Source of the DNA: Alphaproteobacteria bacterium | GTDB lineage: Bacteria; Pseudomonadota; Alphaproteobacteria; Reyranellales; JAQSWP01 | Direction of reading: 5' to 3' | Length of the DNA: 64,000 nt | Assembly: GCA_037190765.1 (NCBI GenBank) | Contig: JBBCJW010000025.1 | Coordinates: 14,124 to 78,123, forward strand | Shown here: positions 1 to 50,620 of the stretch, one piece after another | Layout: each line of letters begins with the position of its first letter | Position numbering within the stretch: the first letter of the stretch is position 1 | The notes under the pieces: model-generated | Database searches by the model: none | Told to the model about the DNA's origin: nothing | Seen by the model: only the letters and a program-made list of their open reading frames with translations | Made by a program: the position numbers and the translations under genes

Positions 1-774
1 GGCGCATTCCTGCTGACCGAACCGCAGGCGGGCTCCGACACGGCCGCGTTTCGCGCCAGTGCGCGCCGCGACGGCGACCACTTCGTCCTGAAAGGCACCA
101 AGCAGTTCATCTCCAACGGCAGCGAGGCCGGCATGGCGCTGGTGCTGGCGGTAACCGATGCCGGTGCCGGCAAGCGCGGCTTCACCGTCTTCATCGTCGA
201 TCCCGCGATGCCGGGCTACAAGGTCAACCGGGTCGAGGAAAAGCTCGGCCAGCGCACCGCGCATGTGGCGCAGATCGAACTGGACGATTTGCGCGTCCCC
301 GCCGCCAACGTGCTGGGCGAGGTCGGCGGCGGCTACCGGATTGCGATGGCCGGTCTCTCCGACGGCCGCATCGCCATCGCCGCCCAGGCGGTCGGCATCG
401 CCCGCGCCGCCCTGGAGGCCGCCATCCGCTACGCCCGCGAGCGCGAGGCCTATGGTCGGCCGATTTTCGATCTGCAGGCCATCAGCTTCAGCCTGGCGGA
501 GATGGCCATGCAGGTGGACGTTGCCCGGCAATACTACATTCACGCTGCGCGGCTGCTGGAGGCGGGGCTGCCGTGCATGAAGGAAGCGGCGATGGCCAAG
601 CTGTTCGCCAGCGAGATGGCGGAGAAAGTCTGCTCCGATGCGCTGCAGGTGCATGGCGGCTACGGGTATCTGCGCGACTTTCCGGTCGAGCGCTATTGCC
701 GGGACGTGCGCGTGTGCAAGATCTACGAGGGCACCAGCGACATCCAGAAGCTGATCATCTCGCGCAGCCTGTAA
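1..774 (+). CDS. acyl-CoA dehydrogenase, C-terminal ~257 aa (5' end lies outside the window)
   Basis: Frame 1 is open from base 1 (GAFLLTEPQAGSD...) and runs into ORF 133..774. Canonical ACAD C-terminus with the catalytic-base motif IYEGTSDIQ. Confidence 0.9.
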   Translation, partial: GAFLLTEPQAGSDTAAFRASARRDGDHFVLKGTKQFISNGSEAGMALVLAVTDAGAGKRGFTVFIVDPAMPGYKVNRVEEKLGQRTAHVAQIELDDLRVPAANVLGEVGGGYRIAMAGLSDGRIAIAAQAVGIARAALEAAIRYAREREAYGRPIFDLQAISFSLAEMAMQVDVARQYYIHAARLLEAGLPCMKEAAMAKLFASEMAEKVCSDALQVHGGYGYLRDFPVERYCRDVRVCKIYEGTSDIQKLIISRSL

Positions 775-776
775 GG

Positions 777-824
777 AATTGACCGACGGTAAGTAAATTG
801 ACTACTTACAGAAAAAATTGACTT
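777..824. promoter_or_regulatory. candidate operator/promoter region: three AATTGAC direct repeats plus palindrome GTAAGTA-N7-TACTTAC
   Basis: AATTGAC starts at 777, 796 and 816 (19-20 bp spacing). A perfect 7-bp inverted repeat spans 789-809. The site is directly upstream of a TetR gene. Confidence 0.4.
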
Positions 825-952
825 GTACCTCTCTACCGGCTACTTACGGGCTGTGGCGATTGCCTTTTCTGGCCTTCCGCCCGCCGGACGGCATATCGAC
901 TGAAGGAATTCTCCGAGTGCGGCGGGGTCGTCACTCATCAGCCTGGAAAAAC

Positions 953-1549
953 GTGGTCCTCAGCCGGGAGCAGCAGTTCTCGCTGAAACGGGCCGCGCTG
1001 TTGCGTGAAGCCGCCCGCGCCTTCAGCGCCCGCGGCTATCACGCCACCTCGCTCGACGACGTCGCCAAGACGCTGGGCGTGACCAAGGCGGCGCTCTACT
1101 ACTACGTCAAGAACAAGCAGGAAATCCTGTTCGAGTGCCACATGCAGGCGCAGGATCTGGGCGACAGGGCGCTCGATTACAGCGAGCAGAACGGCCGCAA
1201 CGGGCTGGAGCGCATCACGCTGCTGGGCCGCAAATACATCGAGCTGATCACCAACGAGATGGGATCGGCGGCGGTGCTGAGCGAATTCGATGCCCTCGAT
1301 CCCAAGCACCGCAATATCATCGCCCGCCGTCGCGACAAGTTCGACCAGCATTTCCGCAAGCTGATCAGGGACGGCATCGCCGATGGCAGCATTCGCGCCG
1401 TCGACCCGAAGCTCACCGTGTTTTTCTTCATGGGCGCGGTCAACTGGATGACGCGGTGGTTCAGGCCGGACGACGAACGTTCCGGCGAGGATATCGCCCA
1501 GCACTTCACCGATCTTCTCGACAAGGCGATTTCCGCTAGGCAGTCCTAG
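953..1549 (+). CDS. TetR/AcrR family transcriptional regulator
   Basis: N-terminal HTH ATSLDDVAKTLGVTKAALYYYVKNKQEILFE. The maximal ORF starts at 818. I prefer GTG 953 (alternative GTG 917) because the first 45 codons lie over the operator-like repeats and are not TetR-like. Confidence 0.8.
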   Translation: MVLSREQQFSLKRAALLREAARAFSARGYHATSLDDVAKTLGVTKAALYYYVKNKQEILFECHMQAQDLGDRALDYSEQNGRNGLERITLLGRKYIELITNEMGSAAVLSEFDALDPKHRNIIARRRDKFDQHFRKLIRDGIADGSIRAVDPKLTVFFFMGAVNWMTRWFRPDDERSGEDIAQHFTDLLDKAISARQS

Positions 1550-1606
1550 AGCGATCACGTTCTGACGGAATCGCTCGCGGTTCCGTCAAAATCCGTGAAT
1601 CCGCTC
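1548..1606. repeat. REP-like palindromic intergenic element, degenerate copy
   Basis: The arm agagcgatcacgttctgacggaa pairs imperfectly with ttccgtcaaaatccgtgaatccgctc. Same family as 42169-42228 and 62892-62954. It starts inside the TetR stop codon. Confidence 0.5.
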
Positions 1607-1755
1607 CACTCTTCAATATTGGAACAAACCCACGCGGCCTGCTCCGGGATCGCGCTTGACCGCACGCAGTTTTGCAACCCAAGCTGATCGCAGACAAGGC
1701 ACCTGATGGCCATCGGATCGCAACCGGCGGCGTGAAAGGCGGCCGACTTGACTCT

Positions 1756-1764
1756 AATTGACTA
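1756..1764. promoter_or_regulatory. fourth AATTGACTA box, upstream of the ABC/ligase operon
   Basis: The 9-mer aattgacta is identical to 796-804. A TTGACT lies 8 nt upstream at 1748-1753. Confidence 0.35.
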
Positions 1765-1865
1765 TTGAGTAGATCATGCTGCCATGTAGTTAAACATGCG
1801 GCAGCAAATGCGCACCCGGACAAGATCGTATTAAGCGACAGTCGCCGGAGATTGAGGGAGGTTAC

Positions 1866-1904
1866 ATGGAGCGCGCCGCTTTCCGCGCTGGTATCGAACC
1901 TTGA
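1866..1904 (+). other. candidate 12-codon leader ORF (MERAAFRAGIEP) preceding the ABC operon
   Basis: The strong SD GAGGGAGG (1854-1861) sits 4 nt before ATG 1866. The stop TGA 1902-1904 lies 8 nt before ATG 1913 of the ATPase gene, which has no SD of its own. Confidence 0.3.
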
Positions 1905-1912
1905 GCGCTGCG

Positions 1913-2716
1913 ATGGAGGCGAGCCAGTCCACCGCCTCGGCCGAGGCGACGCCTATCCTGACCGCAACCGGCATTCGCATGACCTTCGGCGGCGTCGTCG
2001 CCCTGGACGACGTCTCGGTGGCGGTGGGCCGCAACGAGCTTCTCGCGATCATCGGCCCCAACGGTGCGGGCAAGACGTCGCTGATGAACTGCCTCAGCGG
2101 CTTCTATCGGCCGCAAAAGGGCGAGGTGCGGTTCAACGGCACCTCGATCGCCGGCAAGGGCGTGCATCACATCGCGCGCCTGGGTCTGGCCCGGACGTTC
2201 CAGGGCACGCATATCTTTTCCGGCATGACGGTGATCGAGAACATCATGGTGGGCCGCCACATCCACATGAAGAGCTCGGTGCCGGCCGCCTTCCTGTATT
2301 TCGGCGCCACGCAGCGCGAGGAAATTCGCCATCGCGAAGTGGTCGAGGAGATCATCGAGCTTCTGGAGATCCAGTCGATCCGGCACAAGCCGGTCGGCAG
2401 CCTGGGCTATGGCCTGCGCAAGCGCGTCGATCTGGGCCGCGCCCTGGCGCAGGAGCCGAAGATCCTCCTGATGGACGAGCCGATGGCGGGCATGAACACC
2501 GAGGAGAAGGAGGACCTGGCGCGCTTCGTCCTCGACGTGCGCGAGGCGCGCGGCATCCCGGTGGTTCTGGTCGAGCACGACATGGGCGTCGTCATGGATC
2601 TGGCCGACCGCATCGTGGTGCTGGATTTCGGCCGCAAGATCGCCGAAGGCACGCCGCGACAGATCCAGAAAGACCCGGTCGTCATGAAGGCGTATCTCGG
2701 CGAGGGAGACCGCTGA
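1913..2716 (+). CDS. ABC transporter ATP-binding protein, LivG-like (HAAT family)
   Basis: Walker A GPNGAGKTS, signature/Walker B region LLMDEPMAGMN and the LivG-type C-terminus. The ORF opens at TTG 1901; ATG 1913 is preferred. Confidence 0.9.
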   Translation: MEASQSTASAEATPILTATGIRMTFGGVVALDDVSVAVGRNELLAIIGPNGAGKTSLMNCLSGFYRPQKGEVRFNGTSIAGKGVHHIARLGLARTFQGTHIFSGMTVIENIMVGRHIHMKSSVPAAFLYFGATQREEIRHREVVEEIIELLEIQSIRHKPVGSLGYGLRKRVDLGRALAQEPKILLMDEPMAGMNTEEKEDLARFVLDVREARGIPVVLVEHDMGVVMDLADRIVVLDFGRKIAEGTPRQIQKDPVVMKAYLGEGDR

Positions 2717-4683
2717 TGCTGCGGATGCGCACCCTGCCGCAGATCCTGCTGGAGCGTGCCGAGGAGATGCCCGGCCGGCTGGTGGAGCGCCACAAGCATC
2801 GCGGCATCTGGCGCGAGTACAGCTTCGCCGCCGTCCTCGACAATGTCCGCGCCTTCGCGCTGGGCCTGCACGCGCTGGGCCTGCAGCCGGGCGAGACCGT
2901 GGCCATCATCGGCGAGAACGAGCCCGAGCATTTCTGGGCGGAGTTCGCCGCACAGGCGCTGGGCGGCAAGGTGGTGTCGCTCTACCCCGATCTCACGGCC
3001 GACGAAATCCAATACCTGCTTGCCGACAGCGAGGCGGTCTACCTGGTTGCGCAGGACCAGGAGCAGGTCGACAAGGCGCTGGCGGTACTGCCGCAGGTGC
3101 CCGCACTGCGCCGCATCGTCTACTGGGACGAGACCGGCATGTGGTCTTACGCCCAGCCGGTGCTGACTACGTTCGAAAAGGTCCAAGCCGATGGCCGCCA
3201 GCGCCATGCGGCGGAGCCGGAACTTTTCCGCACCCTGGTCGAGGCGGGGAAGCCCGACGATCTGGCGGTGCTGTCCTATACGTCGGGCACCACGGGCCGG
3301 CCCAAGGGCGTGATGCTGACGCACCGGTACCTGATCGACAATGCGCACCGGCTGATCGAAGCGACCGGCGCCAAACCGGGCATGGAGTATCTCACCTATA
3401 TCGCGCCGGCCTGGGCCACCGAGCAGCTCTTCGGCATCACGGTCGGCATGGTGCTGCCGCTGGTGGTGAATTTCCCCGAGGGTCCGGAAGAGGTCCTCAA
3501 CAACATCCGCGAGCTTGCGGTCGAAATACTGGTGTTCGCGCCCCGGCAATGGGAAAGCCTGGCCGCGACCTTGCAGGCGCGCATGTTCGATGCCGGCCCG
3601 GTGCGGCAGAAAATCTACAACTGGGGCGTCGCCATCGGCCACAAGGTCAACGTCGCCAAGCTGGACGGCAAGCCGGTGCCGTTCGGCGCCCGGCTGCTGT
3701 TCCCGCTGGCCGAGGCGCTGGTGCTGAAGCGGCTGCGCGACCAGCTCGGCCTGACCCGCGCCAGGATCGCCCTCAGCGGCGGTTCCACCATGGCGCCCGA
3801 CGTGTTCCGGCTGTTCCATGCCATCGGCGTTCCCTTGCGCAATCTCTACGGCTCGACCGAGACCGGGATCCTGACCATCCACCAGGGCGACCGCTACGAC
3901 CTGGAGACCGTCGGCCGCTCCGTGCAGGCTCATCCCGAGGCGGGGGCCAAGCTGGAATGGAAGGTCTCGGAGACCGGCGAGCTTCTGGTGCGCGGCGGAT
4001 CGTTCTTCCGCGGCTACTACCGCAAGCCGGAAAAGACTGCCGAACGCATCGTCGATGGCTGGTACCAGACCGGCGACGCCGTCTCGGTCACCGAAGCGGG
4101 CGAGCTGGTGTTCCTGGAGCGGATCGAGGACCTGCGCCGCCTGCGTACCGGCGAGCGCTTCCCGCCGCAGTTCATCGAGACGCGGCTGCGCTTCAGCCCG
4201 TTCATCAAGGACATCATGATCCTGGGCGACGAGCAGTGCGACTATATCGGCGCGCTGATAAACATCGACATGGGGGTGGTGTCGCGCTGGGCCGAGGACC
4301 GCAACATCGGGTTCTCGACCTTCACCGACCTGTCGCAGAAGCCCGAGGTCGCCGCCCTCGTCCGCGAGGAGATCGCGCGCGTCAACGGCTTCCTGCCCGA
4401 GCATGCCCGCGTCCGCCGCTTCGCCAATTTCCCCAAGGAACTGGACCCGGACGAGGGCGAGCTGACGCGCACCCGCAAGCTGCGCCGCGAGTTCCTCGCC
4501 GAGCGCTACGGCGCGCTGATCGCCGGCCTCTATGCCGGCGAGAAGACGATCGCGTTCGAGATACCGGTCACCTACCAGGACGGCAGGCAAGGCACGCTTG
4601 CCGCCCGCGTGCACGTCCACGACGTCGACGAGAATTCGACATTGCCCAAATCCAACTCCCAGAAAATGCGAGCTGCCGGATGA
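2716..4683 (+). CDS. long-chain-type acyl-CoA synthetase (AMP-forming), ABC-operon-associated, 655 aa
   Basis: AMP-binding motif LSYTSGTTGRPKGV; also GSTETG and YQTGD. Its ATG overlaps the upstream stop (TGATG at 2714-2718). The in-frame N-terminal 317 codons of ORF 1765..4683 are an alternate-frame shadow of the ATPase gene. Confidence 0.9.
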   Translation: MLRMRTLPQILLERAEEMPGRLVERHKHRGIWREYSFAAVLDNVRAFALGLHALGLQPGETVAIIGENEPEHFWAEFAAQALGGKVVSLYPDLTADEIQYLLADSEAVYLVAQDQEQVDKALAVLPQVPALRRIVYWDETGMWSYAQPVLTTFEKVQADGRQRHAAEPELFRTLVEAGKPDDLAVLSYTSGTTGRPKGVMLTHRYLIDNAHRLIEATGAKPGMEYLTYIAPAWATEQLFGITVGMVLPLVVNFPEGPEEVLNNIRELAVEILVFAPRQWESLAATLQARMFDAGPVRQKIYNWGVAIGHKVNVAKLDGKPVPFGARLLFPLAEALVLKRLRDQLGLTRARIALSGGSTMAPDVFRLFHAIGVPLRNLYGSTETGILTIHQGDRYDLETVGRSVQAHPEAGAKLEWKVSETGELLVRGGSFFRGYYRKPEKTAERIVDGWYQTGDAVSVTEAGELVFLERIEDLRRLRTGERFPPQFIETRLRFSPFIKDIMILGDEQCDYIGALINIDMGVVSRWAEDRNIGFSTFTDLSQKPEVAALVREEIARVNGFLPEHARVRRFANFPKELDPDEGELTRTRKLRREFLAERYGALIAGLYAGEKTIAFEIPVTYQDGRQGTLAARVHVHDVDENSTLPKSNSQKMRAAG

Positions 4684-5567
4684 TGATCGATTTCCTGAAC
4701 TATCTCATAAACGGGGCTTTGATCGGCCTGCTCTACGCGCTGATCGCCATGGGCTTCGTGGTCATCTATCGCGCCTCGAAGGTCTTCAACTTCGCCCAGG
4801 GCGAGCTGGTGATCTTCGGCGGTTTCGTCGTGTGGTGGATGGTGCTGTCGATGGGCCTGCCGCTGATCGTCGGGCTGCCGCTCGCCTTCGTGGTCGCCGC
4901 CCTCTTCGGCCTGCTGATCGAGCGCATCTTCTTCTCGCGCCTGGTCGGCGAGTCGGTCTTCGCCATGGTGATGGTGACCATCGGCCTGCTCATCCTGATC
5001 CGCGGGCTCATCCTGGTGCTGTTCGGGGCGCAGGTGCGGCCGTTTCCCATCATCTTCCCGCTTCAGCCGGTCATTTTCGGCGACATCCTGATCCCCCGCT
5101 CGCTGCTGTTCGGGGCGGCGATCACCATCGCGGTCGGCCTCGGCCTGTCGTGGTTCTTCAACCGCACGCGGCCGGGCCTGCGCATGACGGCGGTGGCCGA
5201 GGACCATCAGGTCTCGCTGGCCATGGGCATATCGGTCAAACGCTCGATCGCCTTCGCCTGGATCCTCGGCTCCGTGCTCTCCACGCTGGGCGCTATCATC
5301 TTCCTCAGCGGCAAGTCGCTGAACTTCCTGGCGTCCGACATCGGCCTTGCGGCGCTACCGGTGGCGCTGCTGGCGGGATTCGAATCGATCGCCGGCGTGC
5401 TGCTGGCCGGCCTGATCGTAGGCATCATCCAGGGGCTGGTCACCGCCTATGTCGATCCGCTGGTCGGCGGGGCGGTGGGGGCCGTGTTCCCCTTCATCAT
5501 CATGCTCATCATTCTCTTCGTCCGCCCGACGGGAATGTTCGGCTGGAAGACCATCGAGAGGGTCTGA
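4680..5567 (+). CDS. branched-chain-amino-acid-type ABC permease (LivH-like)
   Basis: N-terminus MMIDFLNYLINGALIGLLYALIAMGFVVIY...NFAQGE is typical of LivH. Its start overlaps the ligase stop (ATGATGA). Confidence 0.9.
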   Translation: MMIDFLNYLINGALIGLLYALIAMGFVVIYRASKVFNFAQGELVIFGGFVVWWMVLSMGLPLIVGLPLAFVVAALFGLLIERIFFSRLVGESVFAMVMVTIGLLILIRGLILVLFGAQVRPFPIIFPLQPVIFGDILIPRSLLFGAAITIAVGLGLSWFFNRTRPGLRMTAVAEDHQVSLAMGISVKRSIAFAWILGSVLSTLGAIIFLSGKSLNFLASDIGLAALPVALLAGFESIAGVLLAGLIVGIIQGLVTAYVDPLVGGAVGAVFPFIIMLIILFVRPTGMFGWKTIERV

Positions 5568-5570
5568 TCC

Positions 5571-6623
5571 ATGGATCCCGCAGGCGTATTCGCCACCAGC
5601 TTCGGCCGCGACCAGGCCCTGATCCGCACGCGCCGGCAGTGGATCGCACTGGCGCTGTTCGCCGCCCTGCTGCTGGCGCTGCCCTATGTCGTGGGGCCGC
5701 GGCTGGTCGCCATCTCGACGGCGATGATGATCGCGGCCGTGGTCGTCATCGGCTTGCAGATCAACACCGGCTATGCCGGCCAGGTCAATCTCGGCCAGGC
5801 GGCCTTCATGGGCGTCGGCGCCTATGCCGCCGGCGTCTGCGCCACCAAGTTCGGCCTGCCGTTCTGGCTCGCCATCCCGCTGGGAGGCTGCGCCGCGGCC
5901 ATATTCGGCTTCATTTTCGGCCTCTCGGCGGTGCGCATCAAAGGCTTCTACCTCGCCCTGACCACCATCGCCGCGCAGATGCTGTTCCACTTCATGATCC
6001 TGAACCTGCCGCAATCGTGGTTCGGCGCCTCGAACGGGCTGTCGCTGGAGCCGGCGAGCCTTTTCGGCCTGAAGCTCGACACCGACCGCTCGATCTATTT
6101 CCTGTGCCTGGTGGTGGCGGCGATCATGACGTTCGGCGCCTACGGCATCGTGCGCAGCCGGCATGGACGGGCGTTCGTCGCGGTGCGCGACGACGACGTG
6201 GCCTCCGGCATGATGGGCATCAACGTCGTGCGCACCAAGGCCATCGCCTTCCTGATCGGCGCCTTCTATGCCGGCATCGGCGGCGGGTTGTGGGCCTATT
6301 ACGTCCGGTTCGTGGCGGTCGACCAGTTCACCCTGTTCCACTCGATCTGGTTCATCGCGATGATCATCGTCGGCGGCATGGGGTCGGTGACCGGCGCCCT
6401 GATCGGGGTGTTCATCATCATCTCGGTCCGCGAGGGCTTCGTGACGCTGGGACCGAGCCTGGTGGCGCAGTTTCCGACCCTGGGCGGCGACGTCGTTTTC
6501 GCCACGATGAACGTCTTTCTCGGCGGCGTCATCGCCGCCTTCCTGATCTTCGAGCCCCGCGGCCTGATGCACCGCTGGACTATCATGAAGAGATCCTATC
6601 GGCTGTGGCCTTTCCCTTACTGA
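5571..6623 (+). CDS. ABC permease (LivM-like)
   Basis: Multi-span hydrophobic protein with the LivM-type core GYAGQVNLGQAAFMGVGAY. Confidence 0.9.
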   Translation: MDPAGVFATSFGRDQALIRTRRQWIALALFAALLLALPYVVGPRLVAISTAMMIAAVVVIGLQINTGYAGQVNLGQAAFMGVGAYAAGVCATKFGLPFWLAIPLGGCAAAIFGFIFGLSAVRIKGFYLALTTIAAQMLFHFMILNLPQSWFGASNGLSLEPASLFGLKLDTDRSIYFLCLVVAAIMTFGAYGIVRSRHGRAFVAVRDDDVASGMMGINVVRTKAIAFLIGAFYAGIGGGLWAYYVRFVAVDQFTLFHSIWFIAMIIVGGMGSVTGALIGVFIIISVREGFVTLGPSLVAQFPTLGGDVVFATMNVFLGGVIAAFLIFEPRGLMHRWTIMKRSYRLWPFPY

Positions 6624-6676
6624 GGAGCGGCTGCAACGCTGGGACGCGCAACGCATCGAACGGGAGGACAGGACGC

Positions 6677-7906
6677 ATGACACTCTTTTCTCGCCTGAAG
6701 ATCGCCGGAGCGGCCGCCGCTCTGGGCATCTTGTCGATGACGAGCGGGGCGAACGCCCAGACCACCTACAACATCGCGTCGATGGCCGATTTCACCGGCC
6801 CGTACGCCGACGTGATGAAGGACCTGATCGGCGTGCGCCGCCCCGCCATCGAATGGTGGAACGCCGAAGTCGGCCAGAAGCTCGGCATCAGGCTGACCAG
6901 CAAGGACTACGACCACCGCTACGACGCCGCCCAGGTCGCCAGCCTGTGGCCCGGTATCAAGGCGGAGCTCAATCCGATCGTGGTCATGGGCGTCGGCGGT
7001 CCGGACGTCGCCGCGCTGCAGGGCCGGCTGCCGGCCGACAAGATCCCCATGATCATGTCGACGGCGGGCTACGGGTTTGCTTGGAGGCCGGACCCCTGGA
7101 TCTTCAATCCGCGTCCGACCTACTCGCACGAAGCGGTGGCCTTCTTCAACTGGTACCGCGACCAGCGCGGCGGGTCCGGCCCGCTGAAGGTGGCGATCAT
7201 TTCCTCGGAAGCCTCGCCGGCCTACGTCGACCAGCACAAGGGCATCGAGAAATACGCCAAGGACAATCCCGACAAGCTCGAAGTCGTCGAAACCGTCTTC
7301 ACCGAAATCCAGCCCACCGACCTGACGACGCAGATCAATCGCGTGCTGCGCCGGGGCGCCGAAATCGTCTCGATCCAGACCAATACGGCGGTGGTCGTGG
7401 CGGCCAAGCGGGCCATGCAGGCGGTCGGCAGGAAGGTGCCGATCCTGATGAGCTCGCATAACGGCATGCTCGATTCGGGTCGCGCGGTCGGCGATATCAA
7501 GCAGCTCGAAGGCGATTTCGAGGTCTACGCCATGGCGGTGCCGACCGACGAGAAGACGCCGGCGCGCGCCTTCTTCGACATGCTGACCGACAAGTACGGC
7601 ATGAAGGCGCAGTGGACCGTCACGGCGGTGCAGGGGCTGGGGCAGACGCTGGTCACCTTGCGCGCCATCGAGGCGGCGGCGGCGAAGGTGGGGGCGGACA
7701 AGATCACCGGCGAGGCCATACGCGAGGCCCTGCTGTCCAGCCCGATCAAGAGCGACCAGATCTTCTCGGTGCTGCCCGACCTCAACTTCACCAACGAAGC
7801 GCCGTTCCCGGTGTCGGGGCTGACGGCCGGCATCGGCACGATCAAGGACGGCAAGCACACCGCCGCCGCCAGCAACGCGCCGGTTCCCGTGCTCAACAAG
7901 TGGTGA
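6677..7906 (+). CDS. ABC substrate-binding protein (LivK / Peripla_BP_6-like), Sec signal peptide
   Basis: Signal peptide MTLFSRLKIAGAAAALGILSMTSGANAQ; SD GGGAGGA upstream. This is the in-frame tail of the long ORF 4532..7906. Confidence 0.85.
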   Translation: MTLFSRLKIAGAAAALGILSMTSGANAQTTYNIASMADFTGPYADVMKDLIGVRRPAIEWWNAEVGQKLGIRLTSKDYDHRYDAAQVASLWPGIKAELNPIVVMGVGGPDVAALQGRLPADKIPMIMSTAGYGFAWRPDPWIFNPRPTYSHEAVAFFNWYRDQRGGSGPLKVAIISSEASPAYVDQHKGIEKYAKDNPDKLEVVETVFTEIQPTDLTTQINRVLRRGAEIVSIQTNTAVVVAAKRAMQAVGRKVPILMSSHNGMLDSGRAVGDIKQLEGDFEVYAMAVPTDEKTPARAFFDMLTDKYGMKAQWTVTAVQGLGQTLVTLRAIEAAAAKVGADKITGEAIREALLSSPIKSDQIFSVLPDLNFTNEAPFPVSGLTAGIGTIKDGKHTAAASNAPVPVLNKW

Positions 7907-7961
7907 GACAGGCGTTCGGCCGGACCTTGAACGGTCCGGCCGATCCATCCGGGAGAGTGCC

Positions 7962-8753
7962 GTGCTCGAACTGAACAACGTCGAAGTGATCTACAGCGAC
8001 GTCATCCTGGCGGTGAAAGGCATCTCGCTGAAGGTGCCGGAAGGCCAGTGCGTCACCCTGCTGGGAGGCAACGGCGCCGGCAAGTCGACCACGCTGAAGG
8101 CAATCTCCAACGTCGTGAGAACCGAGGACGGCCGCGTCACCTCCGGTTCGATATCGTTCGACGGCAAGCGCATCGACAACCAGGATCCGGTTGCCGTGGT
8201 CAAGAGCGGCATCATCCACGTCATGGAGGGCCGCCGCGTGCTGCGCCACCTGACGGTGGAGCAGAACCTGATCGTCGGCGGCCACATGCAGGGCTCGCTT
8301 CGGGCAGTGCGCCAGAAGCTCGACATGGTCTACGGCCGTATCGGGCGTCTGGCGGCGCTGAAGGACCGCACGGCGGGATACCTGTCCGGCGGCGAACAGC
8401 AGATGCTGGTCATCGGCCGGGCCATGATGGCCGACCCCAAGCTGATCATGATCGACGAGCCTTCGCTGGGCCTGGCGCCGCTGATGGTGGAGGAGGTTTT
8501 CACGCTGCTGCGCAGCCTGAAGGCGTCCGGCATGACCCTGCTGATCGTCGAGCAGAACACCCGCGTCGCCCTCGACATCGCCGATTACGGCTACGTCATG
8601 GAAAACGGCCGCATCGTGCTGGAAGGCCTGGGCAAGGACCTGCGCACCAACGAGGACGTGCGGGAGTTCTATCTCGGCCTCAACCTCGAAGGCGAACGCA
8701 AGAGCTATCGCGACATCAAGCACTACCGCCGGCGCAAGCGCTGGCTGGGGTAG
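7962..8753 (+). CDS. ABC transporter ATP-binding protein, LivF-like
   Basis: Walker A GGNGAGKST, signature LSGGEQQML and Walker B LIMIDEPS. GTG start with SD GGGAGAG. Confidence 0.9.
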   Translation: MLELNNVEVIYSDVILAVKGISLKVPEGQCVTLLGGNGAGKSTTLKAISNVVRTEDGRVTSGSISFDGKRIDNQDPVAVVKSGIIHVMEGRRVLRHLTVEQNLIVGGHMQGSLRAVRQKLDMVYGRIGRLAALKDRTAGYLSGGEQQMLVIGRAMMADPKLIMIDEPSLGLAPLMVEEVFTLLRSLKASGMTLLIVEQNTRVALDIADYGYVMENGRIVLEGLGKDLRTNEDVREFYLGLNLEGERKSYRDIKHYRRRKRWLG

Positions 8754-8770
8754 GCGCAGTCGATTTCGCC

Positions 8771-9553
8771 TTAGCGGCCGAGAAAGCGCGGCTTGCGCTT
8801 CTCCTCGAAGGCGGCCAGCCCTTCCTTCATGTCGTGGCTGTGCGCGTGCACTTCGCTGGCAAGGATCTCCAGGCGCAGCGCGGTGGCGACCGGCTGTTCG
8901 AGCCCGTCATCGACCAGGGCCTTCATGCGGCGCAGCACCAGCGGGCTTTTATTGGCCAGCTTGGCGACAAGCCGTTCCACCGCGACCGCCAGTTCGCCAT
9001 CGTCGACGACCTCGTTGACCAGGCCGGGGGCAATCAGGTCCTCGGCCGGGACGAACTCGCCGGTGAACAGAAGGTATTTGGCCCGGGTCGGGCCGATCTT
9101 GCGCGGCAGGCGGACCGAGCTGCCGCCACCGGGCAACAGGCCGTAATTGGCATGCGCATCGCCCAGCTTGGCCGATCGCGCCGCCAGCACCAGATCGCAG
9201 CACAGCACCAGTTCGAGACCGCCTGCCAGGGCAAGCCCGTTCAGCGCGGCGATGACCGGGCGCGGGCAGGTCTCGATCCGCTGCATCATGTCGAGCACGG
9301 TGTTGAGGAAGGGGCCGATGGCCGCTTCCCCGCCGGGCTGTCCGCGCACGAATTTCAGGTCGGCGCCGGCGCAGAAGGCGCGGCCGGCGCCGGTCAGGAC
9401 CACGGCCTTGAGGTCGTTGTCCGACACCACCCGGTCGAGGGCCGCGTTGACGCCTGCCACCACCGCCGGCGTGATGGCGTTCAGCGCCTCGGGCCTGTTG
9501 AGCGTGATCCACATGGCACCGTTGCGGACTTCGGAAAGAACGGCTGAAGACAT
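8771..9553 (-). CDS. enoyl-CoA hydratase/isomerase (crotonase fold)
   Basis: ITLNRPEALNA and GAGRAFCAGADL, with C-terminus GLAAFEEKRKPRF. Confidence 0.9.
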   Translation of the reverse strand: MSSAVLSEVRNGAMWITLNRPEALNAITPAVVAGVNAALDRVVSDNDLKAVVLTGAGRAFCAGADLKFVRGQPGGEAAIGPFLNTVLDMMQRIETCPRPVIAALNGLALAGGLELVLCCDLVLAARSAKLGDAHANYGLLPGGGSSVRLPRKIGPTRAKYLLFTGEFVPAEDLIAPGLVNEVVDDGELAVAVERLVAKLANKSPLVLRRMKALVDDGLEQPVATALRLEILASEVHAHSHDMKEGLAAFEEKRKPRFLGR

Positions 9554-9671
9554 GGACGGCCTCCCGGACCTGGTGTTTTTAACTCTCCGGTCACTTGCCT
9601 GTTCCGGAAGTCATATCCTATAGTCGAGGGCAAATCAGGCAAGCCCGCAGCAGGCGCAGGAGCGTTTTTCG

Positions 9672-10808
9672 ATGGGTCCTTTGCTCGACGGCTTCAGGAT
9701 CGTTTGCCTGGCCGAACAATATCCCGGCCCTTACGCCACCCTGCTGCTGGCCGATCTCGGCGCCGACGTGATCCTGGTCGAGCGGCCGGGCAGCGGCGAT
9801 CCCGCCCGCCAGTTCCCCGGCTTTTACGCCGCGCTCAGCCGCAACAAGCGATCGGTCGCCATCGATCTGAAGACGGAGGATGGCAAGCAGCAGTTGCGCG
9901 ATCTGGTCGCCTCGGCCGACGTTTTGATGGAAGGGTTCCGCCCCGGCACCATGGAACGACTGGGTTTCGGCTATGCGGCGATGGAGGCCCTGAACCCGAA
10001 GCTGGTTTACGTCTCGATCTCCGGCTTCGGCCAGTCCGGCCCCTATCGCGACCGGCCCGCCCACGATCTGTCCTATCAGGCGATCGCCGGTTTCCTGTTC
10101 CGTCAGGCCGAAACCGGTTCGCTGGAGGCTCCAAGCGAGATCGCCGTCGGCGATCTGTCGTCGGGTATGTTCGCCGCCATCGGTACGCTGGCCGCCCTGC
10201 TCGAGCGCACCCGCACCGGACGCGGCAGATATGTCGACGTGTCGATGACCGACGGGCTGCTGTCCTGGATGACGGTTTTTCTCGGACCGGTGCTGAACGG
10301 CCAGGCCATAGCCGATATCGGCGCCGAGCCGGCCTACCGGCTTTTCCGCTGCGCCGGAGACAAGATCCTGTCGCTGTCCATCGCGCACGAGGACTGGTTC
10401 TGGAAGCCGTTCTGCACGCTCTTGAAGATGGACGATGTCGCCGACCTCCGCCGCGAGCAGCGGGTGGTACGGCAGGATGAACTGTCGTCGCGGATCGCTG
10501 CAATCCTGGCCCAGGACACGCGTGAAGCGTGGGGGGCGGCTTTCGACGCCGCCGGCATTCCGTGGGGGCCGGTGAATTCGATCGAGGAAGCCGCCGCCGA
10601 TCCGCATTTCCGCGAGCGCGGCATGTTCTCCCGCGTCGCCGATGGCGACGGCACCATGCGCTGGCATGTCGCCCAGCCGCTGCTGTTCTCCGGCGAGCGG
10701 CCGGGGCCGCGGCGCGGCGTGCCGCAACTGGGCGAGCATACGGGCGAGGTGCTGGCCGAACTGGCGCCAGCCGCCGCACCGGGCGCGGCCAAGCCGCAGC
10801 GGGGCTGA
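9672..10808 (+). CDS. family-III CoA-transferase fold protein, alpha-methylacyl-CoA racemase (MCR/AMACR)-like
   Basis: LLLADLGADVILVERP, EGFRPGTMERLGFGY, SGFGQSGPYRDRPAHDLSY (an AHD motif at the position of the MCR catalytic His). Confidence 0.8.
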   Translation: MGPLLDGFRIVCLAEQYPGPYATLLLADLGADVILVERPGSGDPARQFPGFYAALSRNKRSVAIDLKTEDGKQQLRDLVASADVLMEGFRPGTMERLGFGYAAMEALNPKLVYVSISGFGQSGPYRDRPAHDLSYQAIAGFLFRQAETGSLEAPSEIAVGDLSSGMFAAIGTLAALLERTRTGRGRYVDVSMTDGLLSWMTVFLGPVLNGQAIADIGAEPAYRLFRCAGDKILSLSIAHEDWFWKPFCTLLKMDDVADLRREQRVVRQDELSSRIAAILAQDTREAWGAAFDAAGIPWGPVNSIEEAAADPHFRERGMFSRVADGDGTMRWHVAQPLLFSGERPGPRRGVPQLGEHTGEVLAELAPAAAPGAAKPQRG

Positions 10809-10841
10809 TGGCCGCTGCCGAACTCTGACAGGAGGACAGCG

Positions 10842-12083
10842 ATGGAAGATGTCTATGTGGTCGGCGTCGGGATGACGCCCTTTGGCCGCATGCCCGATAC
10901 CGACATCAAGGGCATGTCGCAACAGGCCGTCGATGCCGCACTGGCCGATGCCGGGGTGGAGAAGGGGGCGATCGAAGCCGCCTTCTTCGCCAATGCCTCG
11001 CAGGGCCATATGGAACGCCAGCACATGATCCGCGGTGAGATCGTGATGCGTTCGATGGGCGTCGGCGGCATACCCGTGGTCAATGTCGAGAACGCCTGCG
11101 CCAGCGGCTCGACCGCCTTCAACCTGGCGGTGACTTTCCTCAAGGCCGGCGAAGGCGACGTCGCTTTGGCGCTGGGTGCGGAGAAGATGTATTCGTCCGA
11201 CCGCAAGCTGATGTTCGGTTCCTTCGACAGCGCCTGGGACGTCAGCCGCGACGAGGAAATCCGCCAGCGCCTGCTCAAGCTCGGCGAAGGCGTCGAGGTT
11301 CCCGAGGGCACCACGTCGGACAAGCCCTATAGCGTCTTCATGGACGTCTATGCCGCCTTCTCGCGCTATCACATGAAGCGCTTCGGCACGACGCAGCGCC
11401 AGCTGGCGGCGGTTTCGGCCAAGAACCATCGCCATTCGGTCGCCAACCCGCTGTCGCAGTTCCGCGATGCCTATACTGTGGAGGAGGTGCTGAAGGCGCC
11501 GCCGATCACCTATCCGCTGACCTTGCCGATGTGCTCGCCGATATCCGACGGCGCCGCCGCCTGCATCGTCACCACCAAGGCCGGCCTGAAGCGCCTGGGG
11601 ATCGACCAGGATCGGGCGGTCCGCGTCCTGGCCAGCGTGGTGCAGACCGGCTCCGACCGCGATCCTTCGGAAGTGGAGAAGCACTGCACCGCCCTGGCCG
11701 CGCGGCGCGCCTACGACAAGGCCGGCATTGGCCCGGCGGATGTCTCGGTCGCCGAAGTGCACGACGCCACCGCGATGGGCGAGATCATCCAGATCGAGAA
11801 TCTCGGCTTCTGCGGCTTCGGCGACGGCGGCGGCATTTCGGAGCGCGGCGAAACGGCCCTGGGAGGACGGATCCCCGTCAACCCGTCCGGCGGCTTGGAA
11901 TCCAAGGGGCATCCGGTGGGCGCCACCGGCATCGGCCAGATCCACGAACTGGTCACGCAGCTTCGCGGCGAGGCCGGCCCCCGCCAGGTCGAGGGCGCCC
12001 GCATCGCTTTGGCCGAGAATGGCGGCGGCCTGCACGGCATCGAGGAAGCGGTCGCCTGCGTCACCATCCTGGGCCGCCGCTAG
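10842..12083 (+). CDS. SCPx/SCP2-type thiolase-like protein (lipid-transfer-protein family)
   Basis: Nucleophile motif NACASGS; C-terminal NPSGGLESKGHPVGATG and QLRGEAGPRQV resemble SCPx. The HDCF loop reads HDAT. Confidence 0.8.
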   Translation: MEDVYVVGVGMTPFGRMPDTDIKGMSQQAVDAALADAGVEKGAIEAAFFANASQGHMERQHMIRGEIVMRSMGVGGIPVVNVENACASGSTAFNLAVTFLKAGEGDVALALGAEKMYSSDRKLMFGSFDSAWDVSRDEEIRQRLLKLGEGVEVPEGTTSDKPYSVFMDVYAAFSRYHMKRFGTTQRQLAAVSAKNHRHSVANPLSQFRDAYTVEEVLKAPPITYPLTLPMCSPISDGAAACIVTTKAGLKRLGIDQDRAVRVLASVVQTGSDRDPSEVEKHCTALAARRAYDKAGIGPADVSVAEVHDATAMGEIIQIENLGFCGFGDGGGISERGETALGGRIPVNPSGGLESKGHPVGATGIGQIHELVTQLRGEAGPRQVEGARIALAENGGGLHGIEEAVACVTILGRR

Positions 12084-12113
12084 GCGCGGACCGGACAAGG
12101 GAAGGGCCAGCCG

Positions 12114-12887
12114 ATGAAGCTGAACGAGAAGGTCGCGATCGTCACTGGCGCCGCCTCCGGGCTGGGGTTCGGAACCTGCATGGCGCTGGCGGAGGCCGGC
12201 GCCCGGATCGCCGGCTTCGATCGCGACGAAACCAAACTCGCCGGCTTGCGCGCAGCACTGGGCGAGCGGGTCATCACCCGGACCGTCGATGTAGCGGATG
12301 AGGCCAGCGTGCAGGCGGGCATCGATGCTGTCCTGAACGCCTTTGGCGCCGTGCACGTCGCCGTCAATTGCGCCGGCGTCGCCGATTCGGCCAAGACCGT
12401 GTCCAAAGGCGAGGCTTTCCCGCTGGCGACCTGGAACAAGGTCATCGGCATCAATCTCACCGGCACCTTCAACGTCATCCGCTTCGCCGCGCTGGCGATG
12501 ACGGCCAACGAACCGGAAGGTGAGGGCGGGGAACGCGGCGTCATCGTCAACACCGCCTCGGGCGCGGCCTGGCAGGGCCAGATCGGCCAGGCCGCCTACA
12601 GTGCCAGCAAGGCCGGCGTGATGGGATTGACCCTGCCAGTGGCGCGCGATCTTGCGGCCTATGGAATACGCGTCGTGTCGATCGCGCCGGGATTGTTCGC
12701 CACTTCCATGGTTGAGGGCCTGCCGCCCAAGGTCTCGCAATCGATCGTCGATCGTATGATCCTCTATCCCAACCGCATGGGACGCCCGGACGAATTCGCC
12801 GCCCTCGTCAGGCACATCGCGGAAAATTCGTACCTGAACGCGACGACGATCAACCTCGATGCCGGCGCGCGCATGCAGGCCCGCTGA
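12114..12887 (+). CDS. SDR, 3-hydroxyacyl-CoA dehydrogenase type-2 (HSD17B10)-like
   Basis: TGAASGLG, catalytic YSASKAGV and C-terminus NGTTINLDAGARM-like. Confidence 0.8.
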   Translation: MKLNEKVAIVTGAASGLGFGTCMALAEAGARIAGFDRDETKLAGLRAALGERVITRTVDVADEASVQAGIDAVLNAFGAVHVAVNCAGVADSAKTVSKGEAFPLATWNKVIGINLTGTFNVIRFAALAMTANEPEGEGGERGVIVNTASGAAWQGQIGQAAYSASKAGVMGLTLPVARDLAAYGIRVVSIAPGLFATSMVEGLPPKVSQSIVDRMILYPNRMGRPDEFAALVRHIAENSYLNATTINLDAGARMQAR

Positions 12888-30036: not shown

Positions 30037-30945
30037 GTGCTGGTGGCCGCGGAAGCGCCAATGGTCGGACAGGGGGCAGGCTTGGCGATCGACTACCAAC
30101 GTCTCAAATCGCGCCAGTTCGCGCCGATCGAGCAGCCGGTCACGGCGCGGGAGGCGATTCTCTACGCGCTGGGCGTGGGCGTCGGCAGCGATCCCGACGA
30201 TGGGCAGTCTTTGAAATTCGTCTACGAGAACGGTCTGCAGACGTTGCCGACCTATGGCACCGTGCTGGCCTATCCCGGCGTATGGATCGCCGAGAGCGAC
30301 ACCGGCATTGACTGGCGTCAGGCGCTGAATGGCGAATACAGCGTGCAGTTCCATCGCCTGCCGATGATCCGCGGCCTGGCGATCGGTCGTCTGGCGATAG
30401 AAGAGATCATCGACAAGGGGCCGGGCAGGGGAGCCCTGATCTACACCCGCCGCGAAGTCAGCGACGGCGACACCGGCGAAACCATATGCGTGGTGCGGCA
30501 GACGACATTCTGCCGCGCCGATGGCGGGTTTGGCGGACCTTCGGGGCCGATCAAGCCGGTTCGCGAGGTGCCGACGACCGCTCCCGATCTGATTGTGGCT
30601 TCGGACGTGCCGCTTCAGGCGCATCTCATCTATCGCCTTTCCGGCGATCCCAACCCGCTGCACGTCGATCCGGCGGTGGCCAGAAGCGCCGGCTTCGACA
30701 GGCCCATCCTGCATGGTGGCGCGACATACGGGTTTGTCGGCTACGCGTTGCTGAAAGCGCTCTGCAAGGGCGAACCCGCCCGGTTGCGGCAGCTCGACGT
30801 GCGTTTCTCCGCGCCTGTCTACCCGGGCGAAACCATCGAAACGTCGATCTGGCGCCTCGGCGACGGCCGCGCCGCTTTCCGATCGCAGGTGCGCCAGCGC
30901 GGCGCGATCGCGCTCGATAACGGATATGTCGAGTTTCAACCGTAG
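30037..30945 (+). CDS. MaoC-like (R)-specific enoyl-CoA hydratase, double hot-dog (MFE-2 hydratase-2-like)
   Basis: Hydratase motif YRLSGDPNPLHVDPAVA in the C-terminal half; 302 aa two-domain length. GTG start, with an alternative ATG at 30061. Confidence 0.8.
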   Translation: MLVAAEAPMVGQGAGLAIDYQRLKSRQFAPIEQPVTAREAILYALGVGVGSDPDDGQSLKFVYENGLQTLPTYGTVLAYPGVWIAESDTGIDWRQALNGEYSVQFHRLPMIRGLAIGRLAIEEIIDKGPGRGALIYTRREVSDGDTGETICVVRQTTFCRADGGFGGPSGPIKPVREVPTTAPDLIVASDVPLQAHLIYRLSGDPNPLHVDPAVARSAGFDRPILHGGATYGFVGYALLKALCKGEPARLRQLDVRFSAPVYPGETIETSIWRLGDGRAAFRSQVRQRGAIALDNGYVEFQP

Positions 30946-32844: not shown

Positions 32845-32952
32845 TGGCAGACAACAGAAAAGCGATGCGGCGTCGCAGCCGGTCTGCCGGATGGACGGAA
32901 TCCGTCGTTCGCAGCCTGACGCTGGGTGAAACGTCTTGAAGTCGGAGGGGAG

Positions 32953-34149
32953 ATGGGGCCGCTTGACGGGATAAAGATGATCGAGGTGGCCGCCATCGTC
33001 ATGGCGCCGTTCGCCAGCCAGATGCTGGGCGACATGGGGGCCGAAATCATCAAGGTCGAGCCGCCGGAGGGCGACAGCATCCGCGCCGTCGGCCCCATGC
33101 ATAGCCACGGCATGGGACCGATGTATTTCAACTCCAACCGCAACAAGCGCAGCATCGTGCTCGACCTGAAGAGGCCGCAGGGCCGGGAAGCGCTACTGCG
33201 TCTGGCGCGCGATGCCGATGCGCTGCTCTACAATGTCCGCCCGCAGGCGATGGCACGGCTGGGTCTGGCCTACGAGGATCTGAAACAGGTGAATCCGGGC
33301 CTGGTCTATGTCGGCGCCTTCGGATTCGGGCAGTCGGGTCCCTATGCGGCGCGTCCGGCCTTCGACGAGCTGATTCAGGGGCTGGTGGCGATTCCCAGCC
33401 TGATGGCCCGTTCCGGCAACGGCACGCCGCGCTACGTGCCGCTGGCCTTCATCGACCGCTATGTCGGCGTCCAGGTGGCTGCCTCGCTGCTCGCCGCCCT
33501 GCTGCACCGGCAGCGTACCGGCGAGGGGCAGGCGATCGAGGTGCCGATGCTGGAGGTGGCGGCCCAGCTCGTCCTGGCCGACCATATGGGCGGCGCCACC
33601 TACGATCCGCCGCTGGGTCCGGCCGGCTATCCCCGGTCGCTGGCGTCGGAGCGGCGTCCCTTCGCGACGCAGGACGGCTACATATGCGCCATGCTCTACA
33701 CGGACCGGCACTGGCGCAGCTTTCTCGATCTGGTCGGACGGCCCGAGCTGATGCAGGATTCGAGGTTCGGCACGCTCACCTCGCGCACCGTTCATGCGGG
33801 GGAGGTGCATGGAGCGCTGGAAGACATGCTGCGCACGCGCACCACGGCGGAATGGCTCGCCGCGTTCGAGAAGATCGACATTCCCGCCTTCCGGCTCAAT
33901 ACGCTGGAATCCCTGCTTGAAGACCCGCATCTGCAGGCCGTCGACATGTTCTCCTGGCACGAGCATCCTACCGAGGGACGCGTTCGCGCCGTGCGGCCGC
34001 CCACGACCTGGTCGCGCACACCGCCGTCGATCCGGCGCCTGCCGCCGCGCATCGGCGAGCACAGCGGCGAAATTCTCGCCGAAGCCGGCTATTCGCCGGA
34101 AGAAATCGCCGCACTCGCCGCCAACGGCGCCACCAGACTGGGAGATTGA
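32953..34149 (+). CDS. family-III CoA-transferase (CaiB/BaiF/Frc-like)
   Basis: MLGDMGAEIIKVEPPEGD and GFGQSGPYAARPAFDELIQG. Start MGPLDG follows GGAGGGG. About 70% identical to 46245..47453. Confidence 0.85.
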   Translation: MGPLDGIKMIEVAAIVMAPFASQMLGDMGAEIIKVEPPEGDSIRAVGPMHSHGMGPMYFNSNRNKRSIVLDLKRPQGREALLRLARDADALLYNVRPQAMARLGLAYEDLKQVNPGLVYVGAFGFGQSGPYAARPAFDELIQGLVAIPSLMARSGNGTPRYVPLAFIDRYVGVQVAASLLAALLHRQRTGEGQAIEVPMLEVAAQLVLADHMGGATYDPPLGPAGYPRSLASERRPFATQDGYICAMLYTDRHWRSFLDLVGRPELMQDSRFGTLTSRTVHAGEVHGALEDMLRTRTTAEWLAAFEKIDIPAFRLNTLESLLEDPHLQAVDMFSWHEHPTEGRVRAVRPPTTWSRTPPSIRRLPPRIGEHSGEILAEAGYSPEEIAALAANGATRLGD

Positions 34150-47453: not shown

Positions 47454-47495
47454 TGGCAACTCTCCATTTCCTCCCGGGGTCCGCTTTGACGCGGT

Positions 47496-49837: not shown

Positions 49838-50620
49838 TCAGCGCGGCATCGCCAGCCGCGAGCCGCCGTCGACGAACATGATCTCGCCGGTGACGCTGCG
49901 CGCGTGCTCCACCAGCCAGGTGATCGGATCGGCGATGTCGTCGGGGGTGCTGACGCGCGCCAGCGGCGAGTTGGCCTTGTAGCGCTCGGCCACCGCCTGT
50001 GCCCCGTCCTGGCCGTATCCCCTGCGCACCCACGGCGTGTCGACATAGCCGGGCATTACCGCGTTCACCCTGATCTCCGGCCCCAGGACACGGGCCAGGG
50101 AGAGGGTGACGCTGTTCAGGGCGGCCTTGGAGGCGGCATAGGCGATGGATGAGCCCGTTCCGAGAAACGAAGCGATCGACGAAACGTTGACGATGGCGCC
50201 GTTGCCGCTGGCGCGCAGCGCGGGGGCGCAGGCTTTCGACATCTGGAAGGCGGCGACCACGTTGGTGCGGTAGATGCGCAGGAAATCCTCGCCGTCCAAT
50301 CCGTCGAGATCGGCGTGCTTCACCGCTTTGGTCGTGCCGGCATTGTTCACCAGCGCATCGATCCGGCCCCATTTCTCCAGCGTCCGGTTCACCAGCGCCA
50401 GGCAATCCTCGTTGTTCGACACGTCCGCCTGCATCGCTGCGGCGACGCCTCCGGCCCTGCGGCAGGCCTCGGCGGTCTCCTCTGCGCCGGCGGCGCTGCT
50501 CGCGAAGTTCACCGCTATGTGCCAACCGCTGCGGGCAAGGCGCAGCGCGGTCGCCGCGCCAATGCCCGAGGATGCGCCGGTGATGACGGCGACCCGCCCG
50601 TTCACTTCCTGTGTGCTCAC
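49838..50620 (-). CDS. SDR family oxidoreductase
   Basis: ITGASSGIG and catalytic YAASKAAL. Confidence 0.85.
   Translation of the reverse strand: MSTQEVNGRVAVITGASSGIGAATALRLARSGWHIAVNFASSAAGAEETAEACRRAGGVAAAMQADVSNNEDCLALVNRTLEKWGRIDALVNNAGTTKAVKHADLDGLDGEDFLRIYRTNVVAAFQMSKACAPALRASGNGAIVNVSSIASFLGTGSSIAYAASKAALNSVTLSLARVLGPEIRVNAVMPGYVDTPWVRRGYGQDGAQAVAERYKANSPLARVSTPDDIADPITWLVEHARSVTGEIMFVDGGSRLAMPR

Follow-up and report, generated by a model that had tools for sequence, protein, structure and literature searches.

The stretch of DNA analysed here, referred to as the window, comprises 64,000 nucleotides from an Alphaproteobacteria bacterium of the JAQSWP01 lineage (assembly GCA_037190765.1, contig JBBCJW010000025.1, positions 14,124-78,123, on a contig of about 108 kb), and all positions are counted from its first letter as position 1. 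The block at 8771-12887 is the downstream end of a cassette of 12 genes which begins with an acyl-CoA dehydrogenase (ACAD) and ends with a short-chain dehydrogenase/reductase (SDR). Within this block, a crotonase-type enoyl-CoA hydratase on the minus strand diverges over 118 nt from a plus-strand operon encoding a family III CoA-transferase-fold protein, an SCP2-like thiolase (P0001) and the SDR, with gaps of 33 and 30 nt between the three genes and a purine-rich stretch ahead of the ATG in each. The four open reading frames had been described in a first reading of the sequence (the original prediction), and their strong Pfam family matches identify them as real genes. All motifs quoted at the time are found in the translations, namely NACASGS, HDAT, NPSGGLESKGHPVGATG, QLRGEAGPRQV and ENGGG in the thiolase and EGFRPG, SGFGQSGPY and AHDLSY in the family III protein. 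The thiolase is the central subject of this analysis; it belongs to a large DUF35-free clade of SCP2-like enzymes, the HDA[TSA] thiolases, which lack a cysteine acid/base.

The textbook mechanism of thiolases employs two cysteines, one as the nucleophile and the other as the acid/base; it is the relocation of the second cysteine to an HDCF loop that defines the SCP2 subfamily. This loop cysteine is taken as the proton donor of SCP2-thiolases (PMC7682436; PMC12329534). The top sequence match of P0001 in the PDB is the zebrafish peroxisomal SCP2-thiolase type-1 6hsj (HMMER, 251 bits, about 36% identity). In this alignment NACASG of the query stands opposite NNCSTG, so that Cys86 (NACASGS) aligns with the cysteine of NNCSTGS and the nucleophile is kept as originally proposed; the His-Asp of the loop and the GHP motif match too. 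The query segment VHDATA is placed opposite LHDCFS, and therefore Ala309 of the loop H307-D308-A309-T310 occupies the position of the HDCF cysteine. Further histidine and asparagine landmarks are His357 in KGHPVG and Asn393 in ENGGG; column 393 holds a CxG-like cysteine in four HDCF-type relatives in an alignment of 117 sequences. Neither of the two known acid/base cysteines is thus present. Both had been reported missing at the outset, and the pairwise and the 117-sequence alignment bear this out, with no cysteine placed at the catalytic position.

The assignment as an SCPx-type thiolase holds by sequence and by fold. The AlphaFold2 model, built with 66 sequences, has a mean pLDDT of 96.9, and a Foldseek search with it returns the zebrafish structures 6hsp and 6hrv as best matches (TM 0.85-0.90), followed by the archaeal 6et9/6esq, BbsB (7pxp) and a Pyrococcus furiosus protein (7yvy), with Ltp2 (6ok1) lower. 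The thiolase fold with both halves, a CxS nucleophile, the GHP histidine and the lack of a cysteine at CxG are all found in the query, and of the features that mark an SCP2-thiolase only the HDCF loop with its acid/base cysteine is not, as it reads HDAT. With the eukaryotic type-1 enzymes (6hsj, 6hsp, 6hrv) the query shares the CxS nucleophile, the His-Asp that replaces the Asn-Glu of NEAF, GHP and the asparagine at the CxG position. It differs from them in the loop (Cys to Ala and Phe to Thr), in Met167, Tyr170 and Met230, in the lack of a fused SCP2 domain and in being encoded in a bacterial operon.

The alignment of 117 sequences covers the nearest relatives of the query. In the 113 full-length representatives of 50%-identity clusters that are closest to it, the loop most often takes the form HDA[TSA]. 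The FastTree tree divides into groups of 83 and 34 rows across a branch whose local support is 99%. In the larger group, which includes the query and two paralogues of this genome, no row has HDCF; the 17 rows with HDCF and the 8 with HDAF and an intact nucleophilic cysteine all fall in the smaller one. The missing cysteine was originally regarded as an oddity, but it is the norm for this clade of 83 members. When the HDA[TSA] group is compared with the HDCF-type relatives, Met167 stands in place of Pro, Tyr170 in place of Phe, Met230 in place of Asp, Gln or Glu, Ala309 in place of Cys and Thr, Ser or Ala310 in place of Phe, with Gln60 being invariant in this comparison. Among 80 orthologous thiolases fetched from other species (74-93% identity), Gln60, Cys86, Met167, Tyr170, Met230, Cys231, His307, Asp308, Ala309, Thr310, Asn347 and His357 are invariant, and Glu392 and Asn393 are kept in all 79 orthologues that cover that column. 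This pattern indicates that the clade, which comprises the closest bacterial relatives of the SCPx thiolase, is under strong constraint; it sits in the slot of the cassette's only thiolase.

Two proteins with solved structures, both entered in the PDB as thiolases, likewise lack a cysteine at either acid/base position. BbsB has the loop HDAF with TGGG in the CxG region and also a tyrosine at the column of Tyr170, and the P. furiosus protein PFC_04095 (7yvy) has HDAF with NIGG. They share the SCP2-like thiolase fold with the query but group with the HDxF-type relatives outside the HDA[TSA] clade, at 188-198 bits to the query. Of the paralogues of this genome, the only one on the HDxF side of the tree adjoins a DUF35 gene. 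For the archaeal type the fingerprint has already been written as “HDxF” in a 2026 paper (PMC12960953).

Several simple explanations of the missing cysteine can be set aside. A loss peculiar to this gene, or a pseudo-enzyme, is rejected as the motif is invariant in the 80 orthologues and typical of the 83-member clade. A compensating cysteine is rejected as well: the only other invariant one, Cys231 in MC[SA]P, is equally conserved in the HDCF-type relatives and is therefore not compensatory. The case for Glu392 as the acid/base is weakened, as its column varies between E, Q and H within the clade and the CxG cysteine maps to Asn393, not to Glu392. Comparison of the clade with its HDCF-type relatives yields no obvious candidate for a replacement acid/base.

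DUF35 proteins are the partners to be considered for enzymes of this kind, and a search of the genome for such a partner had been suggested. The genome encodes nine SCP2-like thiolase-fold genes and has six DUF35 (PF01796) matches, none of them on the 108-kb contig, and each of the six lies directly beside one of six other thiolase-fold genes. One of these neighbours is of the HDCF type, and the remaining five have no nucleophile and carry the loops YDCF, YDHF, YDAF, YDAT and YDDF, which makes them Ltp2/Sal-like. No DUF35 gene was found near the three HDA[TS] paralogues of this genome (window, C11 and C13), the latter two being the more distant clade members whose neighbourhoods were covered. 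In the window and the 80 loci, the 6 kb around the thiolase gave no match to a search model built from the DUF35 genes of this genome, a model of limited sensitivity. The annotated gene tables of two plasmid-borne cassettes list none either. The claim that no DUF35 partner is adjacent is thereby upheld, and the query has neither the adjacent nor the fused DUF35 that marks the DUF35-dependent thiolases. It is also set apart from the Ltp2/Sal retro-aldolases: Ltp2 (6ok1) and CtSal share the thiolase fold, the branch of the superfamily and, in the corresponding position, an XDxX loop (PMC12329534), but they lack the nucleophilic cysteine, their loop is YDHF or YDCY and they occur in complex with DUF35, whereas the query has Cys86, His-Asp in the loop HDAT, no DUF35 and a lower structural similarity to 6ok1.

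The paralogues of this genome provide some observations in their own right. The five candidates for Ltp2/Sal-type aldolases lie on contigs C84, C6, C67, C45 and C36 (L001-L005), which is a large number for one genome. The C11 paralogue is 59% identical to the query and lies in the context of a LysR regulator next to binding protein, thiolase, ligase and Zn-dependent alcohol dehydrogenase; the C13 paralogue is 45% identical and is followed by an SDR gene. In the C11 region (L088, G000:C11:195500-209000, about 3800-10000) GC at third codon positions is 0.65-0.76 against about 0.9 in the flanks, and this stretch, with its LysR, binding protein, ligase and Zn-dependent alcohol dehydrogenase-like genes, may be a separately acquired island.

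The thiolase gene is embedded in a locus at which a complete set of enzymes is found together, with ACAD, ligase, hydratase, SDR and thiolase accompanied by a regulator and an importer (Table 1).

Table 1. The twelve genes of the cassette, with positions in the window.
Gene product	Position	Strand	Domains and remarks
Acyl-CoA dehydrogenase, short/branched-chain type, 396 aa, 3' part	1..774	+	Start 417 nt upstream of the window; Pfam Acyl-CoA_dh_N/M/1 on L087:13707-14897
TetR-family regulator	818..1549	+	TetR_N + TetR_C_24
LivG-like ABC ATPase	1901..2716	+	ABC_tran + BCA_ABC_TP_C
Acyl-CoA ligase, ~650 aa, embedded in the importer operon	2716..4683	+	AMP-binding + AMP-binding_C_3; scanned from 2731
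LivH-like permease	4680..5567	+	BPD_transp_2
LivM-like permease	5571..6623	+	BPD_transp_2; 71-92% identical copies near the thiolase in many loci
Liv-type periplasmic binding protein	6620..7906 (start approximate)	+	Peripla_BP_6
LivF-like ABC ATPase	7962..8753	+	ABC_tran; 76-94% identical copies upstream of the module in many loci
Crotonase-type enoyl-CoA hydratase	8771..9553	-	ECH_1, E 1.7e-59; divergent from the three-gene operon
Family III CoA-transferase-fold protein, MCR (racemase) type	9672..10808	+	CoA_transf_3, E 8e-102; His131-Asp132 and Asp161 kept
SCP2-like thiolase P0001, 413 aa	10842..12083	+	Thiolase_C_1, E 7.5e-38; Thiolase_N, E 2e-20
HSD17B10 / type II 3-hydroxyacyl-CoA dehydrogenase-like SDR	12114..12887	+	adh_short; TGAASGLG; Y162-x3-K166

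The best PDB matches of the ACAD are bacterial ACADs, short-chain ACAD (SCAD) and short/branched-chain ACAD (SBCAD). For the ligase, the nearest NCBIfam model is FadD11-like, with a score below its cut-off. The SDR is closest to type II 3-hydroxyacyl-CoA dehydrogenases, and its top PDB matches (218-229 bits) are the 3-hydroxyacyl-CoA dehydrogenases 4o5o, Mycobacterium tuberculosis Rv1144 (6ujk, 224 bits) and human HSD10 (218 bits), with FabG-type reductases reaching no more than 121 bits; together with TGAASGLG and Y162-SAS-K166 this confirms its description as HSD17B10-like. The sequence AATTGAC, a candidate operator of the TetR regulator, does not occur in the divergent region of 118 nt (9554-9671).

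The family III protein has the M. tuberculosis racemase MCR (1x74, 167 bits) as its top PDB match, with the catalytic His and Asp aligned, which are His126 and Asp156 in the M. tuberculosis enzyme. The motif reads AHDLSY in the query and GHDINY in MCR. H131-D132 and D161 are kept in all orthologues, and nine loci without an orthologue have a canonical MCR-type gene (GHD[LM]NY, 32-38% identical) beside the thiolase or a few kb off, so that the racemase-like character proposed for this gene is upheld both by the His-Asp pair with the second catalytic Asp and by the genes that fill its slot elsewhere. Four family III paralogues are found in the window: the cassette gene and 50617-51786 (-) have HD at the position of the MCR histidine, and 32926-34149 (+) and 46245-47459 (-) read FD[ED]LIQ, which is transferase-like and has no histidine. 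The second HD-type gene, with GHDINY and about 0.9 kb from an ACAD pair, is the additional MCR-like gene that had been pointed out. Both plasmid cassettes carry a family III gene of the HD type. Taken together, the sequence evidence favours a racemase.

The cassette is not confined to this bacterium. Hydratase, thiolase and SDR genes are adjacent in about 70 of the 80 loci, in Alpha-, Beta- and Gammaproteobacteria, and about 55 of those 70 also have the orthologous MCR-type gene; most of the 80 have a crotonase copy of 64-90% identity next to the thiolase gene, and the importer lies upstream in many. Carriers include the alphaproteobacterial Bradyrhizobium, Vineibacter, Ferrovibrio and Novosphingobium, the betaproteobacterial Noviherbaspirillum, Paraburkholderia, Cupriavidus, Bordetella petrii and Hydrogenophaga, and some Gammaproteobacteria. 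Among 300 genomes sampled from the phylum only four relatives were found at E <= 1e-100, none of them above 63% identity. High identity across classes together with this patchy occurrence points to horizontal spread, with which copies on plasmids fit: the conjugative plasmid pDC01 of R. wittichii DC-6 carries ligase-ACAD-hydratase and thiolase-3-hydroxyacyl-CoA dehydrogenase, and plasmid p3 of Pseudosulfitobacter carries importer and ligase followed by SDR, CoA-transferase, hydratase, thiolase and ACAD. That this gene content recurs in a rearranged order is an argument for a joint function of the genes and for the protein being the thiolase of the cassette; neither the window cassette nor the two plasmid versions contain a second thiolase gene.

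Of the plasmid copies, the best (thiolase 76% identical) are those of pDC01 (L091, CP021182.1:177421-196659) and of the Sphingomonas sp. MEA3-1 plasmid CM003353.1, and both sphingomonad strains are degraders of 2-methyl-6-ethylaniline. The pDC01 cassette adjoins a maleylacetate reductase and an MCR-type gene and may handle alkyl-branched products of ring cleavage. One locus (L020, CAYUOL010000001.1) is labelled as an uncultured member of the Iamiaceae, from an actinobacterial metagenome-assembled genome, and has the layout and identities of the Bradyrhizobium loci L021, L022, L024 and L025, which is probably due to a binning error or a recent transfer.

We infer the enzyme activities, the substrate class and the proton donor from gene content and sequence, and a coherent route can be drawn from them. 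An organic acid would be imported by the Liv-type ABC system and thio-esterified by the ligase encoded in the importer operon, upon which the ACAD of the short/branched type would desaturate the acyl-CoA, the crotonase would hydrate the enoyl product, the HSD10-type SDR would oxidise the hydroxyacyl product to the 3-ketoacyl-CoA and the SCP2-like thiolase would cleave it thiolytically. The MCR-type protein would most likely interconvert (2R)- and (2S)-2-methylacyl-CoA, so that both epimers could enter a cycle of S-specific enzymes. With such a step the substrates would probably be short- to medium-length acids that carry a 2-methyl or 2-alkyl branch. In the thiolase, Cys86 would form the acyl-enzyme, with His307 of HDAT and His357 of GHP contributing the oxyanion hole; proton transfer, normally the task of the HDCF or CxG cysteine, would have to proceed by another means, which is a matter of speculation and could involve a water molecule in the cavity opened by the changes to Ala309 and Thr310 or the clade-specific Tyr170. 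On balance, we find it fairly probable that the cassette is a self-contained, horizontally shared β-oxidation set, probably for 2-methyl-branched acids, whose thiolase is probably active without a DUF35 partner. A bolder version, which we entertain only as a possibility and would rather doubt than expect, is that the DUF35-free HDA[TSA] clade represents a third catalytic solution in thiolases. Its members would be active and degradative without a cysteine acid/base, the proton would be moved by water held by His307, Asp308 and Thr310 or by Tyr170, the cavity at Ala309 and Thr310 would admit 2-alkyl groups, and the cassette would be a mobile kit shared among Alpha-, Beta- and Gammaproteobacteria and their plasmids.

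A number of observations count against this interpretation, some of them bearing on the substrate and others on the thiolase. With regard to the substrate, the solved relatives of the binding protein are uninformative, and the family III protein scores almost as well against YfdE, SUGCT and formyl-CoA transferase (162-164 bits) as against MCR. Its Asp161 is the catalytic Asp of the transferases as well, its best NCBIfam model is succinate-glutarate CoA-transferase (far below the cut-off) with no racemase model among the matches, and Ferrovibrio-type loci have no family III gene at all. The acid degraded could be a non-branched one, either straight and short-chain or otherwise substituted, with the family III protein as an ordinary CoA-transferase that activates or recycles it and a thiolase that is not specialised for 2-methyl groups. 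The best NCBIfam model of the ACAD, acryloyl-CoA reductase (below its cut-off), and the best solved relative of the crotonase, a 3-hydroxypropionyl-CoA dehydratase which offers no substrate clue, could be read in the same direction. We regard this alternative as unlikely, though it deserves to be taken seriously. All orthologues keep the His-Asp pair that characterises MCR and that is missing from the two transferase-type paralogues in the window, canonical MCR-type genes occupy the slot of the orthologue in other loci, and the cassette encodes its own ligase, which would make a transferase redundant. Moreover, HSD10 is a 2-methyl-3-hydroxybutyryl-CoA dehydrogenase, and the combination of an HSD10-type dehydrogenase with an SCP2-type thiolase is associated with 2-methyl-branched substrates.

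With regard to the thiolase, the PDB entry 4bia is a Cys to Ala mutant of the HDCF cysteine in the T. brucei SCP2-thiolase, and the study of this exchange reportedly found that cysteine to be important for catalysis. In the related aldolase CtSal, Cys304Ala at the same loop position abolishes activity (PMC12329534), so the loss of the loop cysteine can be crippling. As both known acid/base cysteines are missing here and relatives with the thiolase fold have taken on new functions several times (Ltp2, Sal, PhlC and MucB; PMC12329534, PMC12960953), the protein might catalyse another reaction, such as acyl transfer, decarboxylation or a retro-aldol cleavage, or only one half-reaction. This seems improbable given that Cys86 and both histidines are invariant, that the traits of Ltp2 and Sal (no nucleophile, pairing with DUF35) do not apply, and that the gene always travels with a 3-hydroxyacyl-CoA dehydrogenase which would make a 3-ketoacyl-CoA, with no other thiolase in the cassette; both cysteines are also missing from BbsB, which was deposited as a benzoylsuccinyl-CoA thiolase. 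That same enzyme leads to a further objection: its PDB entry describes it as one subunit of a complex, the partner being the DUF35 zinc-finger subunit BbsA. Like the archaeal thiolases, BbsB functions in a complex with DUF35, whereas the query has no such partner beside it. The thiolase might accordingly be active only with a DUF35 protein or another scaffold supplied in trans, for which the six DUF35 domains of the genome could be considered. We think this very improbable: each of those six genes adjoins its own thiolase-fold gene and therefore none is an orphan, for the 80 loci no DUF35 was detected in the 6 kb around the thiolase, the two plasmid gene tables list none, and the closest solved relative, the zebrafish SCP2-thiolase, resembles the query in having no DUF35 chain in its deposited structure.

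The reading as a stand-alone thiolase of a β-oxidation cassette has some consequences. Since the cysteine is regarded as the proton donor and the CtSal mutant is inactive, a stand-alone clade without it poses a genuine mechanistic question and is not a one-gene peculiarity. If the proteins of the clade are active, the acid/base step would be carried out by a means that has so far not been described for thiolases acting alone, and the many database entries that now read “thiolase family protein” or “acetyl-CoA acetyltransferase” would call for a more precise name. The cassette is also a candidate pathway by which soil and marine proteobacteria may degrade methyl-branched acids; reconstructions of metabolism often lack this step. 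Otherwise the system is ordinary: its fold, its pathway logic and the enzymes around it belong to known kinds.

The gene set had originally been likened to the peroxisomal oxidation of 2-methyl-branched acids, and this comparison stands in part. A racemase-type protein with an SCPx-like thiolase does correspond to it; hydratase and dehydrogenase, on the other hand, are a crotonase and an L-specific HSD10-type SDR, as in the mitochondrial pair ECHS1 and HSD17B10, and not an MFE-2. The hydratase-2-like gene at 30037-30945, with MaoC and MFE-2_hydrat-2_N domains, is present as predicted, but it cannot be counted as part of the set: 17 kb separate it from the block, its neighbour is a TctC receptor gene, and it falls outside the module that is conserved in other genomes. 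A closer parallel is the mitochondrial route for isoleucine and 2-methyl-branched substrates (SBCAD, ECHS1, HSD17B10, T2), with the same order of chemistry and the same families of hydratase and dehydrogenase; the cassette differs from it in an SCP2-like thiolase instead of the CxG-containing T2 type and in the additional racemase-type gene. The layout of hydratase (-), MCR-like gene (+) and SDR (+) is also mirrored by the arrangement in M. tuberculosis, with echA11/echA10 (-), mcr Rv1143 (+) and Rv1144 (+), a locus that is not known to include a thiolase between the latter two. Elsewhere in the genome of the query, an operon on contig C89 (L090, G000:C89:11500-19500, genes 28-7197) encodes two ACADs, a 484-aa fusion of a KASIII/HMGS-like domain with DUF35 (zinc ribbon and OB-fold), an HDCF thiolase, a split pair of MaoC hydratases and an SDR. 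It resembles the ACAT/HMGS-DUF35 complexes (PMC12960953) and, with its R-hydratase, is more peroxisome-like than the cassette in the window.

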